64,000 nucleotides of DNA from an uncultured Gammaproteobacteria bacterium (GCA_964588465.1 CAZPPL010000003.1:40545-104544); one strand, 5' to 3'; numbered from the stretch's first letter, positions 25,910 through 32,877 are shown. Notes: a model not told the origin generated them from the sequence alone. Numbers and translations are program-made.

Positions 25910-28552
25910 TTATTCATTAACTTTTACAGTTATCGCCTCTTGAGCGTTTAAACTTATTTTTACTTTATCACCTTCCTTGATTTTACCTCTAATTATTTCT
26001 CCAGCTAATTCGTCCAAAATCATAGTTTGAATAATACGTTTTAAAGGGCGAGCGCCATAAGTGATATCGTAACCCTTTTCCGCTAATAATTTTTTTATTT
26101 TATAACTAATTTTGACCGAAATATTTTTATTGTTCAATCTTTTTTCCACTTTAAAAATTTCTAAATCTACAATTCTTTCCAATACTTTGGGAGTTAAAGC
26201 TTTAAATAGAACAATTTCATCAATTCTGTTAAGGAATTCTAGTTTAAAATTATTTTTTAAGATTTTATCTATTTTTTCCTGCATTTCTTTCTCGCGTAAT
26301 TTGTTAATCTCAATTTTATTGTCTGCACCAGTGAAGCCAATAGAATATTGTTTAATTATTTCATTACCTAGATTAGAAGTCATGATTATTATAGTATTCT
26401 TGAAATTTATCATTCGTCCTTTAGAGTCGGTTAGATGTCCATCGTCTAGAATTTGTAGGAGCATATTAAACATATCGGGATGAGCTTTCTCAATTTCATC
26501 AAATAGTACCACGCTGTAAGGGCGTCGGCGAACTTTATCAGTTAATTGTCCTCCTTCGTCATAACCAACATAACCTGGGGGAGATCCAATTAATTTTGCT
26601 ACAGAATGTTTTTCCATAAATTCACTCATATCTAAACGAATTAAGGATTTTTCATCGTCAAACATAAAACGGGCTAGGGCTTTGGCCAGTTCAGTTTTAC
26701 CTACTCCAGAAGGACCTACGAATAAAAAGGAACCAATAGGTTTTTTTTCTTCATTAATGCCCGCCCTGCTACGACGTAAAGCATTGGCCACTGCTTTAAT
26801 TGCTGGATCTTGGCCTACTACTTCTTTTTTTAACTCATTTTCGGCATTACTAAGTTTTTTAATTTCATCTTGTAGCATACGATTTAGAGGAATACCAGTC
26901 CAGCGAGCTACTACTTTAGCGATATCTTCTTCATCTACTTCTTCTTTTAATATTCGTTGTCCTTTATTTTGTATTTTGAGTAATTCTTCTTGTGATTTTT
27001 TAATCTTATTCTCTAATTTTGGAATCAGACTATATTTAATTTCAGCCACTTTAGTCAGATTTGCTCCTTGACGTTGGGCAATTTCTGCTTTAGTTTTTAA
27101 ATTTTCTATTTCTTTTTTAGAGCCACGAATTTGAGAAATAATATTTTTTTCATTGTTCCAATGTAATTCCAGTTGATCAGCTTTTTCTCTGAGTTTAGCC
27201 AACTCCATTTTAAGTGATCGCAGTTTTGGTGATTTTTTATTATTAGTAGTAGCTAGACCCGCTTTATTCAATTCTAATTGATTGATTCTACGTTTTAATT
27301 GGTCTAATTCATCAGGTATAGAATCTATTTCCATACGTAGGGAAGAGGTAGCTTCATCCATTAAATCCACTGCTTTATCTGGCAAGAAACGATCGCTAAT
27401 ATAACGGTTAGACAATTTAACCGCAGCAATTAAAGCATCATCGGTGATTCTAACTCCATGATGGACTTCGTATTTTGTTTTTAGTCCACGTAACATACTT
27501 ATAGCATCATCAATACTAGGCTCGTTCACATAAATTGGTTGAAAGCGACGTTCTAGAGCTGAATCTCGTTCAATATATTTTTTATATTCTTTAGTGGTGG
27601 TGGCTCCAATAGTTCGTAATTCGCCACGGGCTAGGGCTGGTTTTAGCATATTAGAAGCATCTATAGTTCCTTCAGGAGCACCAGCGCCAATAAGCGTATG
27701 TAATTCGTCAATAAATAATATAATACGACCAGCCTGAGAAGTTACTTCTTTTAATACGGCTTTAAGTCGATCTTCAAATTCTCCTCGGAATTTGGCACCA
27801 GCCACTAAAGATCCTAAATCTAAGGTAACGATTTCTTTATTTTGTAAATTTTCTGGTACATCGCCAGCTATAATGCGTTGTGCTAAACCTTCCACGATTG
27901 CGGTTTTGCCAGTTCCAGCTTCACCGATTAAAACTGGATTATTTTTAGTGCGACGAAGCAATACCTGCATAATACGACGGATTTCTTGATCTCGGCCAAT
28001 AACTGGATCTAATTTTTCTTTTCTAGCTAATTCAGTCAAATTTGTAGTATATTTTTCTAAAACTCTATATTTATTCTCGGGAAAAGGATCAATAACTCTT
28101 TGAGAGCCACGTAGAGCTTTTAAAATATTTTTTACATTTTGATATTCAACTTTAAAATTTAGTAAAACGCTCTGAGCTGGCGAGGGAACTCCGATTAAAG
28201 ACAATAGAATATGTTCGGTAGAAATGAATTCATCATCCATACCGTCGGCTTCTTTCTGCGCTCGTTCTAGAATCAAAGCCGTTTCTGCTGTTCCCGATAC
28301 AGCTTGTATTGGACCAGATTCGGTATTTATTTTTAGACGTGGTAATTTTTTTATTTCCTTTAAGGTATACTCTTCAATTATCTCTGGATCAATTTTCATT
28401 TTCTCCAAAACTGGTTTAATCAAGCCTTCATTTTGTTGTAATAAAGCGAGTAGAACATGAAGAGCTTCAATATTACTTTGACCGTAGGTGGAAGCAATAA
28501 TCTGGGCATTAATAATAACTTCTTGTGATTTATCCGTGAATTTATTAAACAT
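25910..28552 (-). CDS. clpB: Hsp100/Clp chaperone, ClpB-type (two AAA+ modules, long coiled-coil M-domain)
   Basis: Clp_N repeats; D1 [15 protein letters not shown] / ILFIDELH; pore loop AKFRGEFE; a ~135-aa coiled-coil linker; D2 [12 protein letters not shown] / [13 protein letters not shown] at 28552 ([10 protein letters not shown]) is preferred. Confidence 0.9.
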
Positions 28553-28580
28553 ATATTTGAGTTTATTCAATCTTTATTTA

Positions 28581-28607
28581 TTAGCACTCTTGTTATGTGA
28601 GTGCTAA
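28581..28607. promoter_or_regulatory. CIRCE element (HrcA operator): TTAGCACTC-N9-GAGTGCTAA
   Basis: Exact match to the CIRCE consensus inverted repeat, 29 nt upstream of the clpB ATG. Confidence 0.85.
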
Positions 28608-28612
28608 TTTAT

Positions 28613-28641
28613 ATCATAATACAAGAATAATTAGTTGTCAA
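28613..28641 (-). promoter_or_regulatory. Putative clpB promoter (TTGACA-17-TATGAT on minus strand)
   Basis: Reverse complement of 28636-28641 is TTGACA and of 28613-28618 is TATGAT. The predicted TSS falls inside CIRCE. Confidence 0.55.
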
Positions 28642-28664
28642 TCATAATTAAGATGTGATATAAT
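28635..28664 (+). promoter_or_regulatory. Putative promoter for the 28703 operon (TTGTCA-18-TGnTATAAT)
   Basis: TTGTCA at 28635-28640 and TATAAT at 28659-28664 with an extended -10 TG at 28656-28657. Its -35 overlaps the clpB -35 on the opposite strand. Confidence 0.5.
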
Positions 28665-28702: not shown

Positions 28703-29071
28703 ATGGCTGAATATAATTTTTTAACTTATAGTGGTAAGATTATTATCCAAATTTTAGGAGAAATTTTATATTTTCCACTTTGGTGGTATAGTGTCGGCTT
28801 CCTTCGTTTACTAGTTGGTTTGGGTAAATTCTTACGAAATCAAGAAGCTTCATTAGGTTTTAGTATTTGGCTTAAAAATATTTTTGTTCCCATGTATGGC
28901 CAACGTGATTTCACTAGCCGTTTAATTAGTTTTGTAATGCGTAGCATACAGATAATAGTACGTGGTCTGGGACTTTTATTTTTAGTTCTATTATCATTCC
29001 TAATAGCAATCTTATGGTTGGCTTTTCCAATATTTTTGATTTATGCTTTGAGTTCTCAATTGTTTAGATAG
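28703..29071 (+). CDS. Small integral membrane protein (122 aa), unknown function
   Basis: Hydrophobic N-terminal segment ILYFPLWWYSVGFLRLLVGL and C-terminal segment LLFLVLLSFLIAILWLAFPIFLIYAL. Lies upstream of the Clp-like gene. Confidence 0.6.
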   Translation: MAEYNFLTYSGKIIIQILGEILYFPLWWYSVGFLRLLVGLGKFLRNQEASLGFSIWLKNIFVPMYGQRDFTSRLISFVMRSIQIIVRGLGLLFLVLLSFLIAILWLAFPIFLIYALSSQLFR

Positions 29072-29133
29072 TAGTAAATTATGGTTGATATAATTTGTAA
29101 ATAAATTTTATAATTTTTAAGTAGAATTAATGT

Positions 29134-31821
29134 TTGAATATGGATATTAATAAGTTGATTTTTACCGACGAGCAAAGCCGAGGCGGTCGGGGCGCCTGGT
29201 TTTTAGGACGTTTCTTATTCTGGGGCCAAACTTTAAAAAGGTCTGTGATTAGAATAGAAAAGAGTAAAGAAAGAATTGATCATTTTTTAACCTTTTTAAT
29301 TTGGTTTTTTATTTTTGTTGGTTGGTTTCTATTTGGAGTATGGTTATTCCGTCACCACGTGGCTATAAGCGCTGATCCTTATAGTTTATTATTTTTCTGG
29401 AGGAGGTTCAATCCCTTAATTCTAGGTTTCCTATTATCTTTATGGTTTGATCTGTTTGTTATTTATCGAGCTAGTCAAGCTAAAATAGCTATAAAGAAAA
29501 TTAATTATCATTTGTTTGATAATAAGACTAAGCTTACTAGTAGAACTAAAAAAAAATATAACGTTGCCATAGCTTATTCTGCTGTTAGTTTACGGGCAAT
29601 TCAAGATGCTTATTTATTAGCTAGTCGTTTACATCAAAAACAGGTAGAAACTATTCATTTATTTAGAGTCTTATTAAAAATTCCCGAAATTCAAAATTTA
29701 TTTATACGTTTAAACGTGGATGCTAAGAAATTGGTTAATTTGCTTGACTCTCATTTAATTAAGCCAGGAGTTTCTAAGACCACTGGTCATATTAGCTTAG
29801 CACCCATCTTGGAAGAAGTCTTAATTTTAGCTTTTACCGACGCTTATAATCTAAAACAGAATAGTGTTGATCCCTTAAATATTATTTCTTTTTGCTATAA
29901 TCATGATTCCATCCTTTCAGATATCTTGTATGATTTAAAAATTGATCAAGCAAAAATTGTTAACACCGTAGCTTGGTTTAGGGTTAATAGAAAATTAATT
30001 GAGAATTATCATAATTATAGACGATTGGCCATTTTAAAGCCTAGTAATAATATGAATCGGGCTTATACGGCAATTGCTACTCCTACTCTTGATCATTTTT
30101 CTCGTGATTTAACGGTGGTGGCTAAAAGTGGATCTTTAGATATCTGTGTCGGACGAGATCAAGAGATTGAAAATATTTTTGAAGCCTTTATGGGAGGGCA
30201 TAATGGAGTTTTGTTGGTAGGAGCTACTGGAGTGGGGCGGAATACTATTGTGGGAGGACTAGCTCAGTTAATGGTGGAGGAAAATGTTCCTGCTTTTTTA
30301 AGAGACAAACGCTTGGTAGAGTTAGATGTTCCTAGACTTATAGCTGGAGCTAATGCTAGTCAAGCAGAAGAGCGACTGCTCAGGAGTTTAAATGAAATTA
30401 GCCGATCTGGTAATATCATATTATATATTAATAATATTGAGAATCTTATTGGTATTAGTTCAGGGCAAGAAGAAAGTTTAGATCTTTCCGAAGTGTTGGC
30501 TGAAGCTCTTAGTCATAGGAATCTATATTGCTTGGCGGCTGCTACCACCAGAAATTATACTCGTTATATTGAAAATAAACCCTTAGGCAATACTATGACC
30601 ACCATCGGGGTGAAAGAACCAGATATTAATAATGCTATTCAAATATTGGAGAGTAAGGTGGGAGTTTTAGAGACTAAGTATAATGTTTATATAGTATATG
30701 GTGCTCTAGAGGCGGCGGTAGTAATGTCTTCTCGTTATTTACATGATAAATTTTTACCGCTTAAAGCTATTAGTTTACTAGAAAAAGCTGCTATTGTAAC
30801 TGCAGCCAAAACAAAAAATAATCCCACTACTGTTCTTTGTGGTCGCGAAGAAGTGGCTGCGGCCATTAGTGAGCTAACTGGCATTCCACTTAGTAAAGTT
30901 ACTGTGTCGGAGCGTAAAAAATTATTAAATTTAGAAAGTGAAATTCATCGTCGTTTAATTGGTCAAAATGAAGCAGTCAATGCCGTATCGGCTGCTTTAC
31001 GGCGTTCGCGTGCCGAGCTTAGAGACAGCAAGCGGCCCATTGCTAGTTTCTTATTCTTAGGTCCTACTGGGGTAGGGAAAACTGAATTAGCTAAAACTAT
31101 TAGTGAAGTCTATTTTGGTGATGAAAATTATTTAATACGTTTAGATATGAGTGAATATCAATCTCCTGATAGTGTGCGTAAGATGATTGGTGATGTTGAT
31201 GGTACTCTAGGCTATTTAACTGAAGCGGTACGCACCAAACCTTTTGCTTTAGTGCTTTTAGATGAAATTGAGAAAGCTAATCCCGATATTTTAAATTTAT
31301 TTTTGCAACTTTTAGATGATGGTCGGTTAACTGATGGGCAGGGTCGTACGATAAGTTTTTCAGAGTCTATTATTATTGCCACTTCCAATATTGGAGCAAT
31401 TTATATTCAAGAACAGATTAAGGCTAAGACCGCGATTAATTTAATTCAACAAGAATTAGTGGATAACCGGCTCAATAAATATATGCGACCAGAGTTGATC
31501 AATCGTTTTGATGGAATTATTGTCTTTAGACCTCTAAGTGAAGAAAATATTTTTGCCGTAACCACTCTAATGCTTAAAAAAATTAAAAAGAATCTAGCTC
31601 GTAAGGGTATTGGACTAAAAGCTGATAAAGATGGGGTAAGTATCTTGGCACAAGAAGGTTATGATCCTAAATTTGGAGCTCGTCCTTTGCGACGTTTATT
31701 GCAAAGTAAAGTAGAGGATATTATTGCTAATAAGATTTTAGCTGGAGATTTGAAACGTCGTGATACCGTAGTTATTAATGCTCAGGCAAAAATTGAGATT
31801 AATAAGGCTATCAAGCTATAA
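29134..31821 (+). CDS. Membrane-anchored Clp/Hsp100-family AAA+ ATPase with degenerate first nucleotide-binding module
   Basis: The N-terminal ~110 aa contain TM helices (FLTFLIWFFIFVGWFLFGVWLF; LILGFLLSLWFDLFVIY), followed by Clp_N-like repeats. D1 reads GATGVGRNT / ILYINNIENL; D2 is canonical ([12 protein letters not shown] / LVLLDEIEKA). The track start is TTG at 29134; ATG at 29140 is an alternative. Confidence 0.85.
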   Translation: MNMDINKLIFTDEQSRGGRGAWFLGRFLFWGQTLKRSVIRIEKSKERIDHFLTFLIWFFIFVGWFLFGVWLFRHHVAISADPYSLLFFWRRFNPLILGFLLSLWFDLFVIYRASQAKIAIKKINYHLFDNKTKLTSRTKKKYNVAIAYSAVSLRAIQDAYLLASRLHQKQVETIHLFRVLLKIPEIQNLFIRLNVDAKKLVNLLDSHLIKPGVSKTTGHISLAPILEEVLILAFTDAYNLKQNSVDPLNIISFCYNHDSILSDILYDLKIDQAKIVNTVAWFRVNRKLIENYHNYRRLAILKPSNNMNRAYTAIATPTLDHFSRDLTVVAKSGSLDICVGRDQEIENIFEAFMGGHNGVLLVGATGVGRNTIVGGLAQLMVEENVPAFLRDKRLVELDVPRLIAGANASQAEERLLRSLNEISRSGNIILYINNIENLIGISSGQEESLDLSEVLAEALSHRNLYCLAAATTRNYTRYIENKPLGNTMTTIGVKEPDINNAIQILESKVGVLETKYNVYIVYGALEAAVVMSSRYLHDKFLPLKAISLLEKAAIVTAAKTKNNPTTVLCGREEVAAAISELTGIPLSKVTVSERKKLLNLESEIHRRLIGQNEAVNAVSAALRRSRAELRDSKRPIASFLFLGPTGVGKTELAKTISEVYFGDENYLIRLDMSEYQSPDSVRKMIGDVDGTLGYLTEAVRTKPFALVLLDEIEKANPDILNLFLQLLDDGRLTDGQGRTISFSESIIIATSNIGAIYIQEQIKAKTAINLIQQELVDNRLNKYMRPELINRFDGIIVFRPLSEENIFAVTTLMLKKIKKNLARKGIGLKADKDGVSILAQEGYDPKFGARPLRRLLQSKVEDIIANKILAGDLKRRDTVVINAQAKIEINKAIKL

Positions 31822-31824
31822 ATT

Positions 31825-32877
31825 ATGTTTTATTTTTTAATATTTTTATTGTCTTTACTTGCCACAATAGTTTTTACTATAATTGTTAAACGTTGGGCAC
31901 TATATTTTAAAATTATTGATGAGCCTGATAAGCGCTCTCAGTCTGAAGGTAGAAAAATTCATACTCTTCCCACTCCACTTTTAGGCGGTTTGGCTATTTT
32001 TTTGGCTTATTTTTTATTTTTATTTATTTTTCATCGGCAATTTTTATCTGGTAATTTGCACTGGAGCCATTTGATAGGATTTTTCATAGGAGCTTTAATT
32101 ATTACCATCGGTGGCGTCTTGGATGATAAATATAATCTATCTCCTCAACGACAAATTATTTTTCCTTTATTGGCTAGTCTAGCGGTTATTTGGGGTGGGG
32201 TTAATATTGCTAGGCTGACCGATCCTTTCGGGGGTTTCATAAATTTACAAACTATTGGATTTATTTCTCCCGTACTGATTATTTTGTGGTTGTTAGGTAT
32301 GATGTATACCACTAAATTATTAGATGGTGTGGATGGTTTAGTTCCAGGAATTAGTGCTATTGGTGGTTTTATTATTTTTTTATTTACTCTGACCACTCGT
32401 TATTATCAACCCGATATTGCTTTTGCTGCCATACTACTCACTGGAGTTTGTCTAGGATTTTTAGTTTTTAATTGGCATCCTGCTAAAATATTCTTAGGAG
32501 AGGGGGGGTCCTTATTACTAGGCTATATTCTAGGAGTGTTAGCTATTATTTCTGGAGGTAAAATAGCTATTGCCCTGCTTATTATGGGTATCCCCATTTT
32601 AGATGTAATTTGGATCATTGCTCGGCGTTTATGGCAAGGTAAAAATCCTTTTAAATTCGCTGATCGTCAGCATTTACATCATCGTTTGTTGTCCCTGGGC
32701 TTAGGCCAGAGAAGTACGGTATTAATTTTTTATTTTTTAGCCTTTGCCTTTGGTCTTAGCGGTTTATTTCTGCAAAGTCATGGAAAATTTTTAGCCTTAT
32801 TGATTTTACTCGCTATTATGTTGCTGGTAGTTATTGGTTTTTGGTATTTAGATTATAGGAAAAAACTAGAAAATTAA
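31825..32877 (+). CDS. Polyprenyl-phosphate N-acetylhexosamine-1-phosphate transferase (MraY/WecA family, GT4)
   Basis: ~10 TM helices, DDKYNLSP, and TTKLLDGVDGL matching the NxxDGxDGL motif. Confidence 0.85.
   Translation: MFYFLIFLLSLLATIVFTIIVKRWALYFKIIDEPDKRSQSEGRKIHTLPTPLLGGLAIFLAYFLFLFIFHRQFLSGNLHWSHLIGFFIGALIITIGGVLDDKYNLSPQRQIIFPLLASLAVIWGGVNIARLTDPFGGFINLQTIGFISPVLIILWLLGMMYTTKLLDGVDGLVPGISAIGGFIIFLFTLTTRYYQPDIAFAAILLTGVCLGFLVFNWHPAKIFLGEGGSLLLGYILGVLAIISGGKIAIALLIMGIPILDVIWIIARRLWQGKNPFKFADRQHLHHRLLSLGLGQRSTVLIFYFLAFAFGLSGLFLQSHGKFLALLILLAIMLLVVIGFWYLDYRKKLEN

Follow-up and report, generated by a model that had tools for sequence, protein, structure and literature searches.

Two open reading frames (ORFs) were confirmed on the plus strand of the 64,000-nucleotide stretch of DNA analyzed here (the window), at positions 28703 to 29071 (122 amino acids [aa]) and 29134 to 31821 (895 aa). 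The shorter ORF encodes a membrane protein, here called mp122, and lies directly upstream of the longer one in the same orientation, with clpB divergent, as a first-pass annotation of this sequence had described. The longer ORF encodes a Clp/Hsp100 paralog with a predicted transmembrane (TM) anchor, characterized by ORF analysis, Pfam and NCBIfam models, HMMER, AlphaFold2, and Foldseek. Residue numbers of the Clp paralog are counted from the TTG at 29134; the start used in the databases is an ATG at 29140, two codons downstream, and the resulting 893-aa version (cluster P0001) is 100% identical to a protein in NCBI. Pfam domains Clp_N (aa 159 to 207), AAA_lid_9 (aa 498 to 576), AAA_2 (aa 634 to 793), and ClpB_D2-small (aa 801 to 881) were all assigned above cutoff, in the order found in class I Hsp100/Clp proteins, in which D1 carries AAA_lid_9 and D2 is AAA_2. 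The AlphaFold2 model of the monomer had a pLDDT of 86, and Foldseek aligned it with ClpC, ClpB, and ClpC1 protomers at TM scores of 0.81 to 0.87 and 37 to 41% identity. The best PDB sequence match found by HMMER was ClpC.

Hsp100/Clp proteins are textbook soluble machines. Hydrophobic helices preceding Clp_N had been proposed for this one, and Kyte-Doolittle and Hessa analyses and the AlphaFold2 helices agreed, with the second segment marginal. Segment 1 (aa 50 to 73; 29281 to 29352, plus strand) is a strong predicted TM helix, with a Kyte-Doolittle score of 2.4 and a summed Hessa ΔG of −3.3, and falls inside AlphaFold2 helix 34-71; family members have a median Hessa sum of −1.5, with 93% of them below 1. 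Segment 2 (aa 92 to 113; 29407 to 29472, plus strand) is marginally hydrophobic (Kyte-Doolittle, 1.8; Hessa sum, +3.0) and is a probable second TM helix. It is spanned by AlphaFold2 helix 92-118 and bears a conserved Asp106 (Asp in 62 of 95 family members). Both segments were drawn as long helices with a pLDDT of about 90. Counts of lysine plus arginine in the N terminus, the loop, and the stretch after TM helix 2 (10, 2, and 9, respectively) fit a hairpin with N-in, C-in topology. All 120 close relatives keep a conserved N-terminal region, as do distant ones, in which it is longer; the true start therefore lies upstream of the helices.

The basic, putatively cytosolic segment that precedes the hairpin (aa 1 to 47; 29134 to 29274, plus strand) contains a three-strand beta element at aa 8 to 27 in the AlphaFold2 model. 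In the alignment, the N termini of distant relatives start with CxxCxGxG-x(6-10)-CxxCxGxG, and all five that were tested gave sub-threshold matches to the Pfam models DnaJ_CXXCXGXG, Anti-TRAP, and BSD2_CRD, none of which matched the query N terminus. The motif of these distant members is of the DnaJ type, not the C4 type of ClpX and ClpE, and the TM hairpin follows it. Every Cys is gone from the query N terminus; aligned in this way, the segment is a Cys-less remnant of the zinc knuckle pair, and the window lineage has lost the DnaJ-type knuckle. Downstream of the hairpin lies a Clp_N-like N-domain (aa ~146 to 300; 29569 to 30033, plus strand), with a Clp_N score of 25.3 bits against a cutoff of 20.7, alignment of aa 157 to 290 to the ClpC N-domain by HMMER, and AlphaFold2 helices over aa 142 to 299.

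The D1 module, comprising a large domain (aa 336 to 495) and the AAA_lid_9 domain (together 30139 to 30861, plus strand), is a pseudo-ATPase according to the AlphaFold2 model and a residue census: the AAA+ fold is predicted to be retained, and the catalytic residues are gone. Rossmann strands and helices were modeled at aa 356 to 491 with a pLDDT of 85 to 92, and the sole Pfam match in the large domain was AAA_16, under its cutoff. To set the register, we aligned the protein with the canonical ClpB encoded in the window and with 196 relatives; the Walker A, Walker B, and pore-loop residues proved truly degenerate, as the first-pass annotation had claimed, and not shifted. The Walker A remnant GATGVGRNT (30220 to 30246) has R369 for Lys and N370 for Thr/Ser; the pore-loop-1 site AGANASQAEE (30343 to 30372) has N407 for Phe/Tyr and contains no aromatic; and the Walker B remnant ILYINNIENL (30418 to 30447) has N433 for Asp and N434 for Glu, all on the plus strand. 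The paired Arg fingers are replaced by N486 and T487.

These losses differ in their distribution. Loss is family-wide for the Walker B Glu, the paired Arg fingers, and the aromatic of the pore loop: no close relative (0/120) and a single distant one (1/76) has the catalytic Glu, and the aromatic occurs in none of either set (0/196). Loss of the Walker A Lys and the Walker B Asp is limited to the small clade of the window (clusters P0001 to P0004, 78 to 100% identical to the query), which alone has the R-N state of Walker A; the Lys is kept, with D-N for D-E in Walker B, in 98 of the 120 close relatives. To judge from these residues, the K-S with D-N pattern of most members would allow ATP binding without hydrolysis, and D1 of the window clade (R-N with N-N) has probably lost ATP binding too. 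The protein is thus not the one-off paralog it had appeared to be but one member of a large family whose D1 modules are all degenerate. Identity among the 120 relatives is 0.73 in D1, 0.86 in D2, and 0.50 in the TM region, and the value for D1, despite its dead motifs, indicates purifying selection. Three degenerate motifs and a TTG listed as the start of the ORF are also what an artifact or a decaying gene (a miscalled start that leaves the TM part untranslated, or a pseudogenized Clp paralog) might present. We find this scarcely credible for an intact ORF with an ATG two codons on and an identical 893-aa protein in NCBI, whose N terminus is conserved in all relatives, whose D1 is so well preserved, and whose family spans at least 199 species genomes.

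D2 had been called canonical, and for its ATPase residues this was correct. The large domain (31033 to 31512, plus strand; AAA_2, E = 6.5e−49) contains Walker A GPTGVGKTE (31060 to 31086, plus strand) and Walker B LVLLDEIEKA (31249 to 31278, plus strand), and the small domain (31534 to 31776, plus strand) supplies sensor-2 R850. K649, D710/E711, sensor-1 N752, and Arg finger R791 are all present, and at least 74 of the 76 distant relatives (≥97%) retain them. By alignment, only D2 has a complete ATP hydrolysis site. The description did not extend to pore-loop-1, IGDVDGTLGY (31186 to 31215, plus strand), in which the Tyr of GYVG is gone. HMMER aligned the query IGDVDGTLGY-----LTE to ClpC VGAPPGYVGHDDGGQLTE, with GYVG changed to GTLG and a 5-aa deletion. 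Of 76 distant relatives, 70 have either a gap or a non-aromatic residue in the column of the canonical pore Tyr. The loop varies in length and sequence and, family-wide, is one of the most poorly conserved segments of D2 (top-residue frequency, 0.43 versus 0.72 for the whole of D2). Since the position just before LTE is Tyr or aliphatic in 86% of members, and LGY is nearly invariant among Falkowbacteria, a re-registered pore loop is possible. Class I Hsp100/Clp proteins, in contrast, have two functional nucleotide sites and pore aromatics in both modules (KYR in D1 and GYVG in D2), where the query has a failed site (GVGRNT, INN) and an intact one, with ANASQ and GTLG at the pore.

The protein also lacks the M-domain and the ClpP loop, neither of which had been seen on first reading. 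It is collinear with the ClpA model TIGR02639 (aa 154 to 882 against model positions 7 to 733, no insertion), and only about 60 aa, modeled without a coiled coil, separate the D1 lid from D2, unlike in ClpB and ClpC, which have an M-domain. No [LIV]G[FL] insertion follows D2 sensor-1: sensor-1 and RPEL are 30 aa apart in all 73 relatives compared but 40 aa apart in the neighboring ClpB, which has a conserved YSIGF insertion. The IGF/IGL loop of ClpA, ClpC, and ClpE is thus missing. NCBI and JGI label family members "ATP-dependent Clp protease ATP-binding subunit" or "ClpC," and these generic names, like the PDB match to ClpC, would suit an ordinary ClpC or ClpA ortholog that delivers substrates to ClpP. 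We consider this very unlikely with the loop absent, D1 dead, and the NCBIfam scores far below threshold. The N-terminal TM hairpin and an obligate small membrane partner further distinguish the query from ClpA, ClpB, and ClpC.

Candidate assignments were examined individually, and the protein fell under every NCBIfam equivalog cutoff. ClpA (TIGR02639, 468.6 bits; cutoff, 993) was rejected, as were ClpB (TIGR03346, 570; cutoff, 1232; a match in two pieces and no M-domain) and ClpV/TssH (TIGR03345, 427 bits; cutoff, 885; type VI secretion system genes in none of the loci). ClpE was rejected on the Cys-less N terminus and the missing ClpP loop, and FtsH on the lack of a Pfam Peptidase_M41 match and the presence of two Hsp100-type modules. 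ClpI of Actinomycetota is a precedent for an Hsp100 class recognized by bioinformatics alone, with subtypes that have or lack the ClpP-binding motif (PMC10149685). Unlike in the query, its ATPase modules and pore motifs are intact; it also has an M-domain, lacks a TM anchor, and comes from another phylum.

mp122 was examined through its homologs, AlphaFold2 model, Hessa profile, and synteny. It has conserved motifs (FPxWWY[ST]xG, WxKNxFxPMYGQxD, and RxIS) followed by a hydrophobic C-terminal stretch of about 40 aa, within which aa 89 to 107 have a Hessa ΔG of −5.0. AlphaFold2 modeled helices at aa 6 to 51, 53 to 58, and 70 to 121 (pLDDT, 88.6). Searches of mp122 against Pfam, NCBIfam, and PADLOC gave no match, and no PDB fold matched (best E value, 1.5); its 315 homologs are all named "hypothetical," and none has a Pfam domain. 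The gene lies directly upstream of the Clp paralog in about 75 close GTDB loci, with a median gap of 4 nt. A homolog (HMM E values of 1e−25 to 1e−40) occupies the same position in 10 of 10 distant loci (29 to 45% identity) with unrelated flanks, and the reverse search from mp122 found a Clp ATPase downstream in 69 of 69 loci. mp122 is therefore an obligate, conserved partner gene even where the rest of the neighborhood differs, and this synteny suggests that its product contacts the ATPase.

A promoter-like site, TTGTCA-18-TATAAT with an extended −10 (28635 to 28664, plus strand), precedes mp122 and is a consensus match only, at 11 of 12 positions. A heat shock link had been drawn from the neighboring clpB. 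The two do adjoin, but the link is one of adjacency only: the CIRCE operator goes with clpB at all 57 related loci, however near or far mp122 lies, and none was found at the distant mp122 operons. CIRCE is clpB's operator and not that of the mp122-Clp operon. On the other side, a Glycos_transf_4 (GT4) gene follows 3 to 5 nt downstream in Falkowbacteria and several distant lineages and is missing in several others; this adjacency may be ancestral synteny with an L21-RecR-DnaB block.

Within Patescibacteria, the family comprises 246 clusters at 50% identity and is present in at least 199 species genomes; these organisms are uncultivated and ultra-small, and the gene takes up 2.7 kb of genomes of about 1 Mb. 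It lies within a syntenic housekeeping region and is vertically inherited across one class. PADLOC matches to DolB and PDC-M37B might point to an anti-phage defense system or another kind of mobile system with a ClpB-like ATPase. We regard this as implausible, because the matches cover the generic D2 alone and mp122 has none, the inheritance is vertical, and base composition is uniform over the window. The family is defined by a hairpin before Clp_N, a D1 without the Walker B Glu or pore aromatic, an intact D2, and mp122 upstream, all of which are found in the query. No name for it was found in databases or in a full-text literature search, where Hsp100/Clp proteins appeared as soluble machines. 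We conclude that the family is real and represents a subfamily of Clp/Hsp100 ATPases not described before, hidden under a generic label.

As the best explanation, held tentatively, we propose that mp122 and the Clp paralog together make up a membrane module of two genes conserved in Patescibacteria, a D2-powered, ClpP-independent machine acting on membrane-proximal clients. The paralog would be held in the cytoplasmic membrane by its N-terminal helical hairpin, with both ends cytoplasmic, and would form a hexamer in which D2 supplies all the work and D1 may be a structural spacer or assembly ring. In NSF D2 and Pex1/Pex6 D1, one of two stacked rings is folded, non-hydrolyzing, and serves assembly; those proteins belong to another AAA+ clade, and D1 of the window lineage lacks even the nucleotide-binding Lys. 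Because the anchor is N-terminal, the N-domain/D1 face would lie against the membrane, in a geometry like that of FtsH and Msp1, although the flexible linkers at aa 114 to 145 and 300 to 335 (pLDDT down to 53) mean that the model does not fix the orientation of the ring. The N-domain/D1 face is where substrates enter in solved Hsp100 hexamers (ClpA, ClpB, and Hsp104 structures), and clients would thus most likely be membrane-embedded or membrane-proximal. The machine would most likely pull on or remodel them without ClpP and without Hsp70 coupling, and mp122 would be its fixed membrane partner, as an adaptor or as part of a membrane portal. The membrane proteostasis or extraction role first suggested for the protein would fit this geometry. 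Counting against the best explanation are the marginal TM helix 2 and the missing aromatics of both pore-loop-1 segments.

FtsH, also bacterial and chromosomal, has a two-TM N-terminal anchor and an AAA+ ring under the membrane whose entry face is towards the bilayer. It differs in its single classical-clade AAA module, fused M41 protease, and aromatic FVG pore loop, as the query has neither protease nor pore aromatic. Msp1/ATAD1 likewise combines an N-terminal TM anchor with an AAA+ protein without a protease, and Msp1 extracts membrane proteins (PMC7018516 and PMC12793716). Msp1, however, is a eukaryotic protein outside the Hsp100 group, with one ring and aromatic-rich pore loops that extraction requires.

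The same polarity bears on an export or insertion motor. Analogous to HSP101 of the PTEX translocon, such a motor would have a channel formed by the TM hairpins and mp122, through which the ring would drive proteins into the membrane or to its other side. The twelve TM helices of the hexamer might, with mp122's own, line a pore, and in these small genomes much of the neighborhood codes for secreted or membrane proteins. We judge it improbable: D2 is the exit face of Hsp100 proteins, and an N-terminal anchor places the entry face at the membrane, the reverse of the order in PTEX. In addition, the pore loops are degenerate, and no conserved secretion system genes were found in the close and distant loci inspected.

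To our knowledge, canonical hand-over-hand threading needs a pore-loop-1 aromatic in every characterized Hsp100. With the canonical D2 Tyr also gone, a simple reading of extraction by threading is weakened. No polypeptide need pass through the pore if ATP turnover in D2 instead drove conformational changes, relayed by D1, the N-domain, and the TM hairpin, that act on mp122 or on some process in the membrane, for instance the making of envelope glycan by the GT4 enzyme encoded downstream. Torsins offer a model: they are membrane-associated relatives of the Hsp100 D2 module that lack aromatic pore-loop residues and need transmembrane cofactors (PMC5425593). Torsins are single rings of the eukaryotic ER lumen without an Arg finger of their own, whereas the query D2 keeps its Arg finger and sensor-2. 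Such an actuator would explain why the pore Tyr is absent from D1 and from most D2 modules while ATPase residues are conserved, why a membrane partner is always paired with the paralog, and why GT4 often follows. We nevertheless consider it somewhat unlikely, as the residues before LTE may form a re-registered loop, Clp_N and the DnaJ-type zinc knuckle of distant relatives suggest binding of polypeptide clients, and the GT4 adjacency is patchy. A doubtful generalization is that the mp122-Clp pair, as a new type of membrane-integral Hsp100 machine working on one ring, with an ancestral DnaJ-type zinc knuckle and no canonical aromatic threading, could serve across a major Candidate Phyla Radiation class either as a bacterial counterpart of Torsin-type actuators or as a dislocase with a non-canonical grip, for core membrane protein quality control or envelope assembly.

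If the proposed membrane module is real, the range of known Hsp100/Clp roles would be broadened by a membrane-integral member that has an obligate small membrane subunit. The family is also a set of natural mutants, with stepwise decay of D1 (from K-S/D-N to R-N/N-N) and a D2 ring without the GYVG Tyr, through which the need for an inactive AAA+ ring and for the pore-loop aromatic can be probed. It probably marks an important, unstudied part of the membrane biology of Patescibacteria.

ORF calling resolved positions 28703-31821 into two genes on the same strand. The first, mp122 (28703-29071, + strand), encodes a 122-amino-acid (aa) membrane protein. The second lies directly downstream and encodes a Clp/Hsp100 paralogue with two AAA+ modules, D1 and D2, which we refer to here as the ATPase. 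It spans 895 aa from a TTG at 29134, from which residues are numbered, to 31821; the public annotation begins at the ATG at 29140 and gives 893 aa (P0001, 100% identical). All of the sequence features listed in the first-pass annotation were found where it had placed them. Within the 62-nt gap between the two genes is a promoter-like site (29085-29114, +) that matches at 11/12 positions, and a G+C-rich hairpin within the ATPase coding sequence (29181-29197, +), flagged as terminator-like, encodes a conserved GGRGAW motif. The G+C content of the window is uniformly low (~0.33) and its housekeeping genes include gyrB, dnaB, gatB, pgk, eno, and sufB; the region is core chromosome. Homologues assign it to Candidatus Falkowbacteria/Patescibacteria.

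A profile built on the first 340 aa (E <= 1e-10) matched 246 clusters at 50% identity among 1.84 billion representatives, as well as 199 GTDB species genomes. Where a source is named, it is Falkowbacteria, Kerfeldbacteria, Parcubacteria, or “Patescibacteria group,” and the product names of the family members are all generic. GTDB records with the Falkowbacteria-type gene order are often titled “uncultured Gammaproteobacteria” (loci L004, L010, L017, and others), and one (L030) is titled “Saccharimonadales”; these titles look wrong.

Pfam assigned Clp_N (aa 159-207), AAA_lid_9 (aa 498-576), AAA_2 (aa 634-793), and ClpB_D2-small (aa 801-881) to the ATPase, and the sole match to D1 was a sub-threshold AAA_16. 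The protein fell far under the cutoff of every NCBIfam Clp equivalog. The NCBIfam ClpA model gave a single collinear alignment (ATPase 154-882 against model positions 7-733), whereas the ClpB models were split in two; the M-domain is therefore absent, as the first-pass annotation had proposed. An AlphaFold2 model built from a 95-sequence alignment (pLDDT, 86; pTM, 0.76) gave D1 a normal Rossmann core and matched the ClpC, ClpB, and ClpC1 protomers with TM scores of 0.81 to 0.87. The ATPase is clearly of the class-I Hsp100 fold and falls outside ClpA, ClpB, ClpC, ClpE, ClpV, and FtsH in membership tests. PADLOC matches were at the level of the D2 domain only, and we rejected a role as a defense component, which is extremely improbable.

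The first-pass annotation had also described at least two strongly hydrophobic N-terminal helices. This held for segment 1 (aa 50-73), a strong transmembrane (TM) helix with a Kyte-Doolittle value of 2.4 and a summed Hessa value of -3.3; the sum is below 1 in 93% of family members. The Hessa values are approximate, and the sum takes no account of residue position in the helix. Segment 2 (aa 92-113) proved only marginal (Kyte-Doolittle, 1.8; Hessa, +3.0), largely because of a conserved Asp106 (29449-29451), a position that is acidic in 62/95 family members. A conserved Y-R follows Asp106 at the cytoplasmic end of the segment. AlphaFold2 predicted both segments as long helices (pLDDT, ~90). The 18-aa loop has 2 Lys and Arg residues, against 10 ahead of the first helix and 9 past the second; given this charge distribution, and since the ATPase modules must face the cytoplasm, we favor an N-in, C-in hairpin. 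All relatives have the N-terminal 113 aa in conserved form, so the translation start does not lie downstream of the helices.

Ahead of the first helix, most distant members carry CxxCxGxG-x(6-10)-CxxCxGxG; the strict pair pattern occurs in 23/95 sequences of the alignment with distant members (relatives P0131-P0267). Five distant N-termini searched against Pfam matched DnaJ_CXXCXGXG in 5/5 cases and Anti-TRAP or BSD2_CRD in 4/5, all sub-threshold, and the Cys pair is predicted to form DnaJ-type zinc knuckles. The Falkowbacteria lineage of the window has lost all of these Cys residues and kept a GGRGAWF remnant (within 29134-29274), and AlphaFold2 still predicts a three-strand beta element at aa 8-27.

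Translation placed the D1 Walker A position at GATGVGRNT (30220-30246), Walker B at ILYINNIENL (30418-30447), and the pore loop at AGANASQAEE (30343-30372), the three motifs earlier read as degenerate. The alternative that intact motifs had been shifted in register was ruled out by alignment of the ATPase to the canonical ClpB of the window and to 120 close and 76 distant relatives. In this alignment, the D1 residues are replaced: Walker A K and T by R369 and N370, Walker B D and E by N433 and N434, the pore-loop F/Y by N407, and the two Arg fingers by N486 and T487. The loss is family-wide, with the Walker B Glu present in 0/120 close and 1/76 distant members, the pore-loop aromatic in 0/196, and the Arg fingers mostly gone. 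The Walker A Lys is retained in 63/76 distant members, and 98/120 close members combine K-S or K-T in Walker A with D-N in Walker B; the orthologue P0006, for example, is K-S with D-N. Walker B E-to-Q or E-to-N mutants bind ATP without hydrolyzing it, and by analogy this combination would allow D1 to bind ATP without hydrolysis. The R-N plus N-N state of the window's protein is confined to clusters P0001 to P0004, which are 78 to 100% identical to the query. Identity across relatives is 0.73 in D1, 0.50 in the TM hairpin, and 0.86 in D2. The value for D1 despite its dead motifs marks it as a maintained pseudo-ATPase domain and not a decaying one. That the gene is an artefact or a pseudogene is scarcely credible.

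D2 had been called canonical, and for its ATPase residues this is correct: it retains Walker A (GPTGVGKTE, 31060-31086, +), Walker B (LVLLDEIEKA, 31249-31278, +), sensor-1, the Arg finger, and sensor-2, with family-wide conservation of 97% or more. D2 is thus predicted to be the sole competent ATPase ring. The pore loop departs from the canonical form. HMMER aligned IGDVDGTLGY-----LTE of the ATPase against VGAPPGYVGHDDGGQLTE of ClpC, so that GYVG becomes GTLG and is followed by a 5-aa deletion. The column of the canonical pore Tyr is a gap or non-aromatic in 70/76 distant representatives, and the top-residue frequency of the pore-loop segment is 0.43 versus 0.72 for the whole of D2. The position directly preceding LTE is Tyr or aliphatic in 86% of members and might stand in for the lost Tyr. 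The main rival to a pulling machine, a non-threading, Torsin-like actuator, draws on two of these features: neither pore-loop aromatic remains, and the D2 loop is poorly conserved. We consider this rival rather unlikely. Walker B of D2 is itself degenerate in two outliers, P0183 (VFDNFENI; locus L172) and P0152 (LLNEFEKA); P0183 has GHQGSGKT as its D2 Walker A and still has mp122 upstream and the glycosyltransferase gene described below downstream.

The stretch past D2 sensor-1 is 30 aa in 73/73 relatives, in agreement with the reported absence of a ClpP loop, while the neighboring ClpB has an insertion with YSIGF at this point. A partnership of the ATPase with ClpP is accordingly very unlikely. 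The ClpB of the window aligns over its whole length with the ClpB model, full M-domain included, and its 10- to 12-aa insertion (loop at 26318-26347, -) looks like a ClpP-docking IGF loop; such a ClpB would be a natural counterpart to the engineered BAP variant. Among related clpB ORFs with an extractable loop, 52/56 conserve Y[ST/A]IGF. A tblastn search with an approximate Escherichia coli ClpP query found no match in the window or in the relatives' loci, which are small fractions of the genomes.

The clpB gene (25910-28570, -) is divergent from the ATPase operon, as previously noted. The first-pass annotation had linked the ATPase to heat shock through this neighbor, a link that reduces to adjacency. 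An exact consensus CIRCE (TTAGCACTC-N9-GAGTGCTAA) lies at 28581-28607, directly downstream of a promoter-like TTGACA-17-TATGAT (28613-28641, -). A second promoter-like sequence, TTGTCA-18-TATAAT (28635-28664, +), lies ahead of mp122 and has no CIRCE within it; the two sites are back-to-back with overlapping -35 hexamers. CIRCE stays with clpB in 57/57 related loci; the clpB start is 14 to 120 nt away except in two loci, where the clpB ORF call is split, and mp122 can be as near as 27 nt or as far as 3274 nt. On a Kerfeldbacteria contig it lies after the ATPase gene, just before clpB, and it was not found in any other distant mp122 operon examined. Because CIRCE tracks clpB and not mp122, the heat-shock operator belongs to clpB, and we rejected co-regulation of the ATPase through it. 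Locus L085 (Candidatus Kerfeldbacteria, GCA_016182495.1; 4621-10906) has mp122, the ATPase gene, a 171-aa gene, and clpB on one strand, and the adjacency to clpB thus recurs outside Falkowbacteria; it is absent from six other distant loci spanning ~4 to 5 kb on either side.

The partner gene is more constant. mp122 is directly upstream of the ATPase in ~75 GTDB loci (median gap, 4 nt), but the whole neighborhood is syntenic among these, which weakens them as evidence of pairing. In 10/10 distant lineages (29 to 45% identity), a gene of 105 to 132 aa is directly upstream (spacing, -10 to +55 nt) and is an mp122 homologue by HMM (E, 1e-25 to 1e-40), and the surrounding genes are different (SecE-NusG-L11, ATP synthase, Pup ligase/TGT, or GT2/DUF2079); the P0131 contig had too little upstream sequence for this comparison. 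Conversely, in a search begun from mp122, the ATPase N-terminus adjoined it in 69/69 metagenome loci that extend 600 nt or more downstream. The upstream position noted in the first-pass annotation is therefore general, and mp122 is the obligate membrane partner gene of the ATPase.

mp122 had no Pfam, NCBIfam, or PADLOC match, and its 315 homologues are each named “hypothetical.” Its AlphaFold2 model (pLDDT, 88.6; helices 6-51, 53-58, and 70-121) matched only generic helical hairpins in the PDB (PspA/Vipp1 and MsbA helices; best E-value, 1.5). The invariant positions form two clusters, FPxWWY[ST]xG and WxKNxFxPMYGQxD...RxIS; the second is a basic loop, predicted to be cytoplasmic by the positive-inside rule. 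Covariation between mp122 and the ATPase (MI-APC; 123 paired sequences; Neff, ~77) gave top pairs enriched in the N-terminal 47 aa. An unrelated control, the downstream Glycos_transf_4 protein, gave the same enrichment (ratio, 3.4 versus 2.9), so column variability and phylogeny lie behind the pattern, and it was discarded as a sign of contact.

The gene for this WecA-like control protein (31825-32877, +) starts 3 nt past the ATPase stop codon. It lies 3 to 5 nt behind the ATPase in the window and in several, not all, distant lineages: it follows in L081, L088, L091, and L172, is one gene removed in L090, and does not follow in L085, L089, or L173. The adjacency could reflect an operon or merely ancestral synteny.

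By analogy with Hsp100, FtsH, Msp1, NSF, and Pex1/Pex6, we tentatively propose that the ATPase is a membrane-held hexamer in which the D1 ring would have a structural or assembly role. The N-domain/D1 face, by which substrates would enter, would lie against the membrane, D2 would drive pulling or remodeling of membrane-proximal clients without ClpP or Hsp70, and mp122 may act as an adaptor or portal subunit. That the ATPase is instead an export motor is improbable. A full-text literature search returned no description of a membrane-integral or TM-anchored bacterial Hsp100 or of this family. The closest precedent for a newly recognized Clp class is ClpI, which, unlike the ATPase, has intact motifs and no anchor. 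The family is of interest to AAA+ specialists and to CPR biology.
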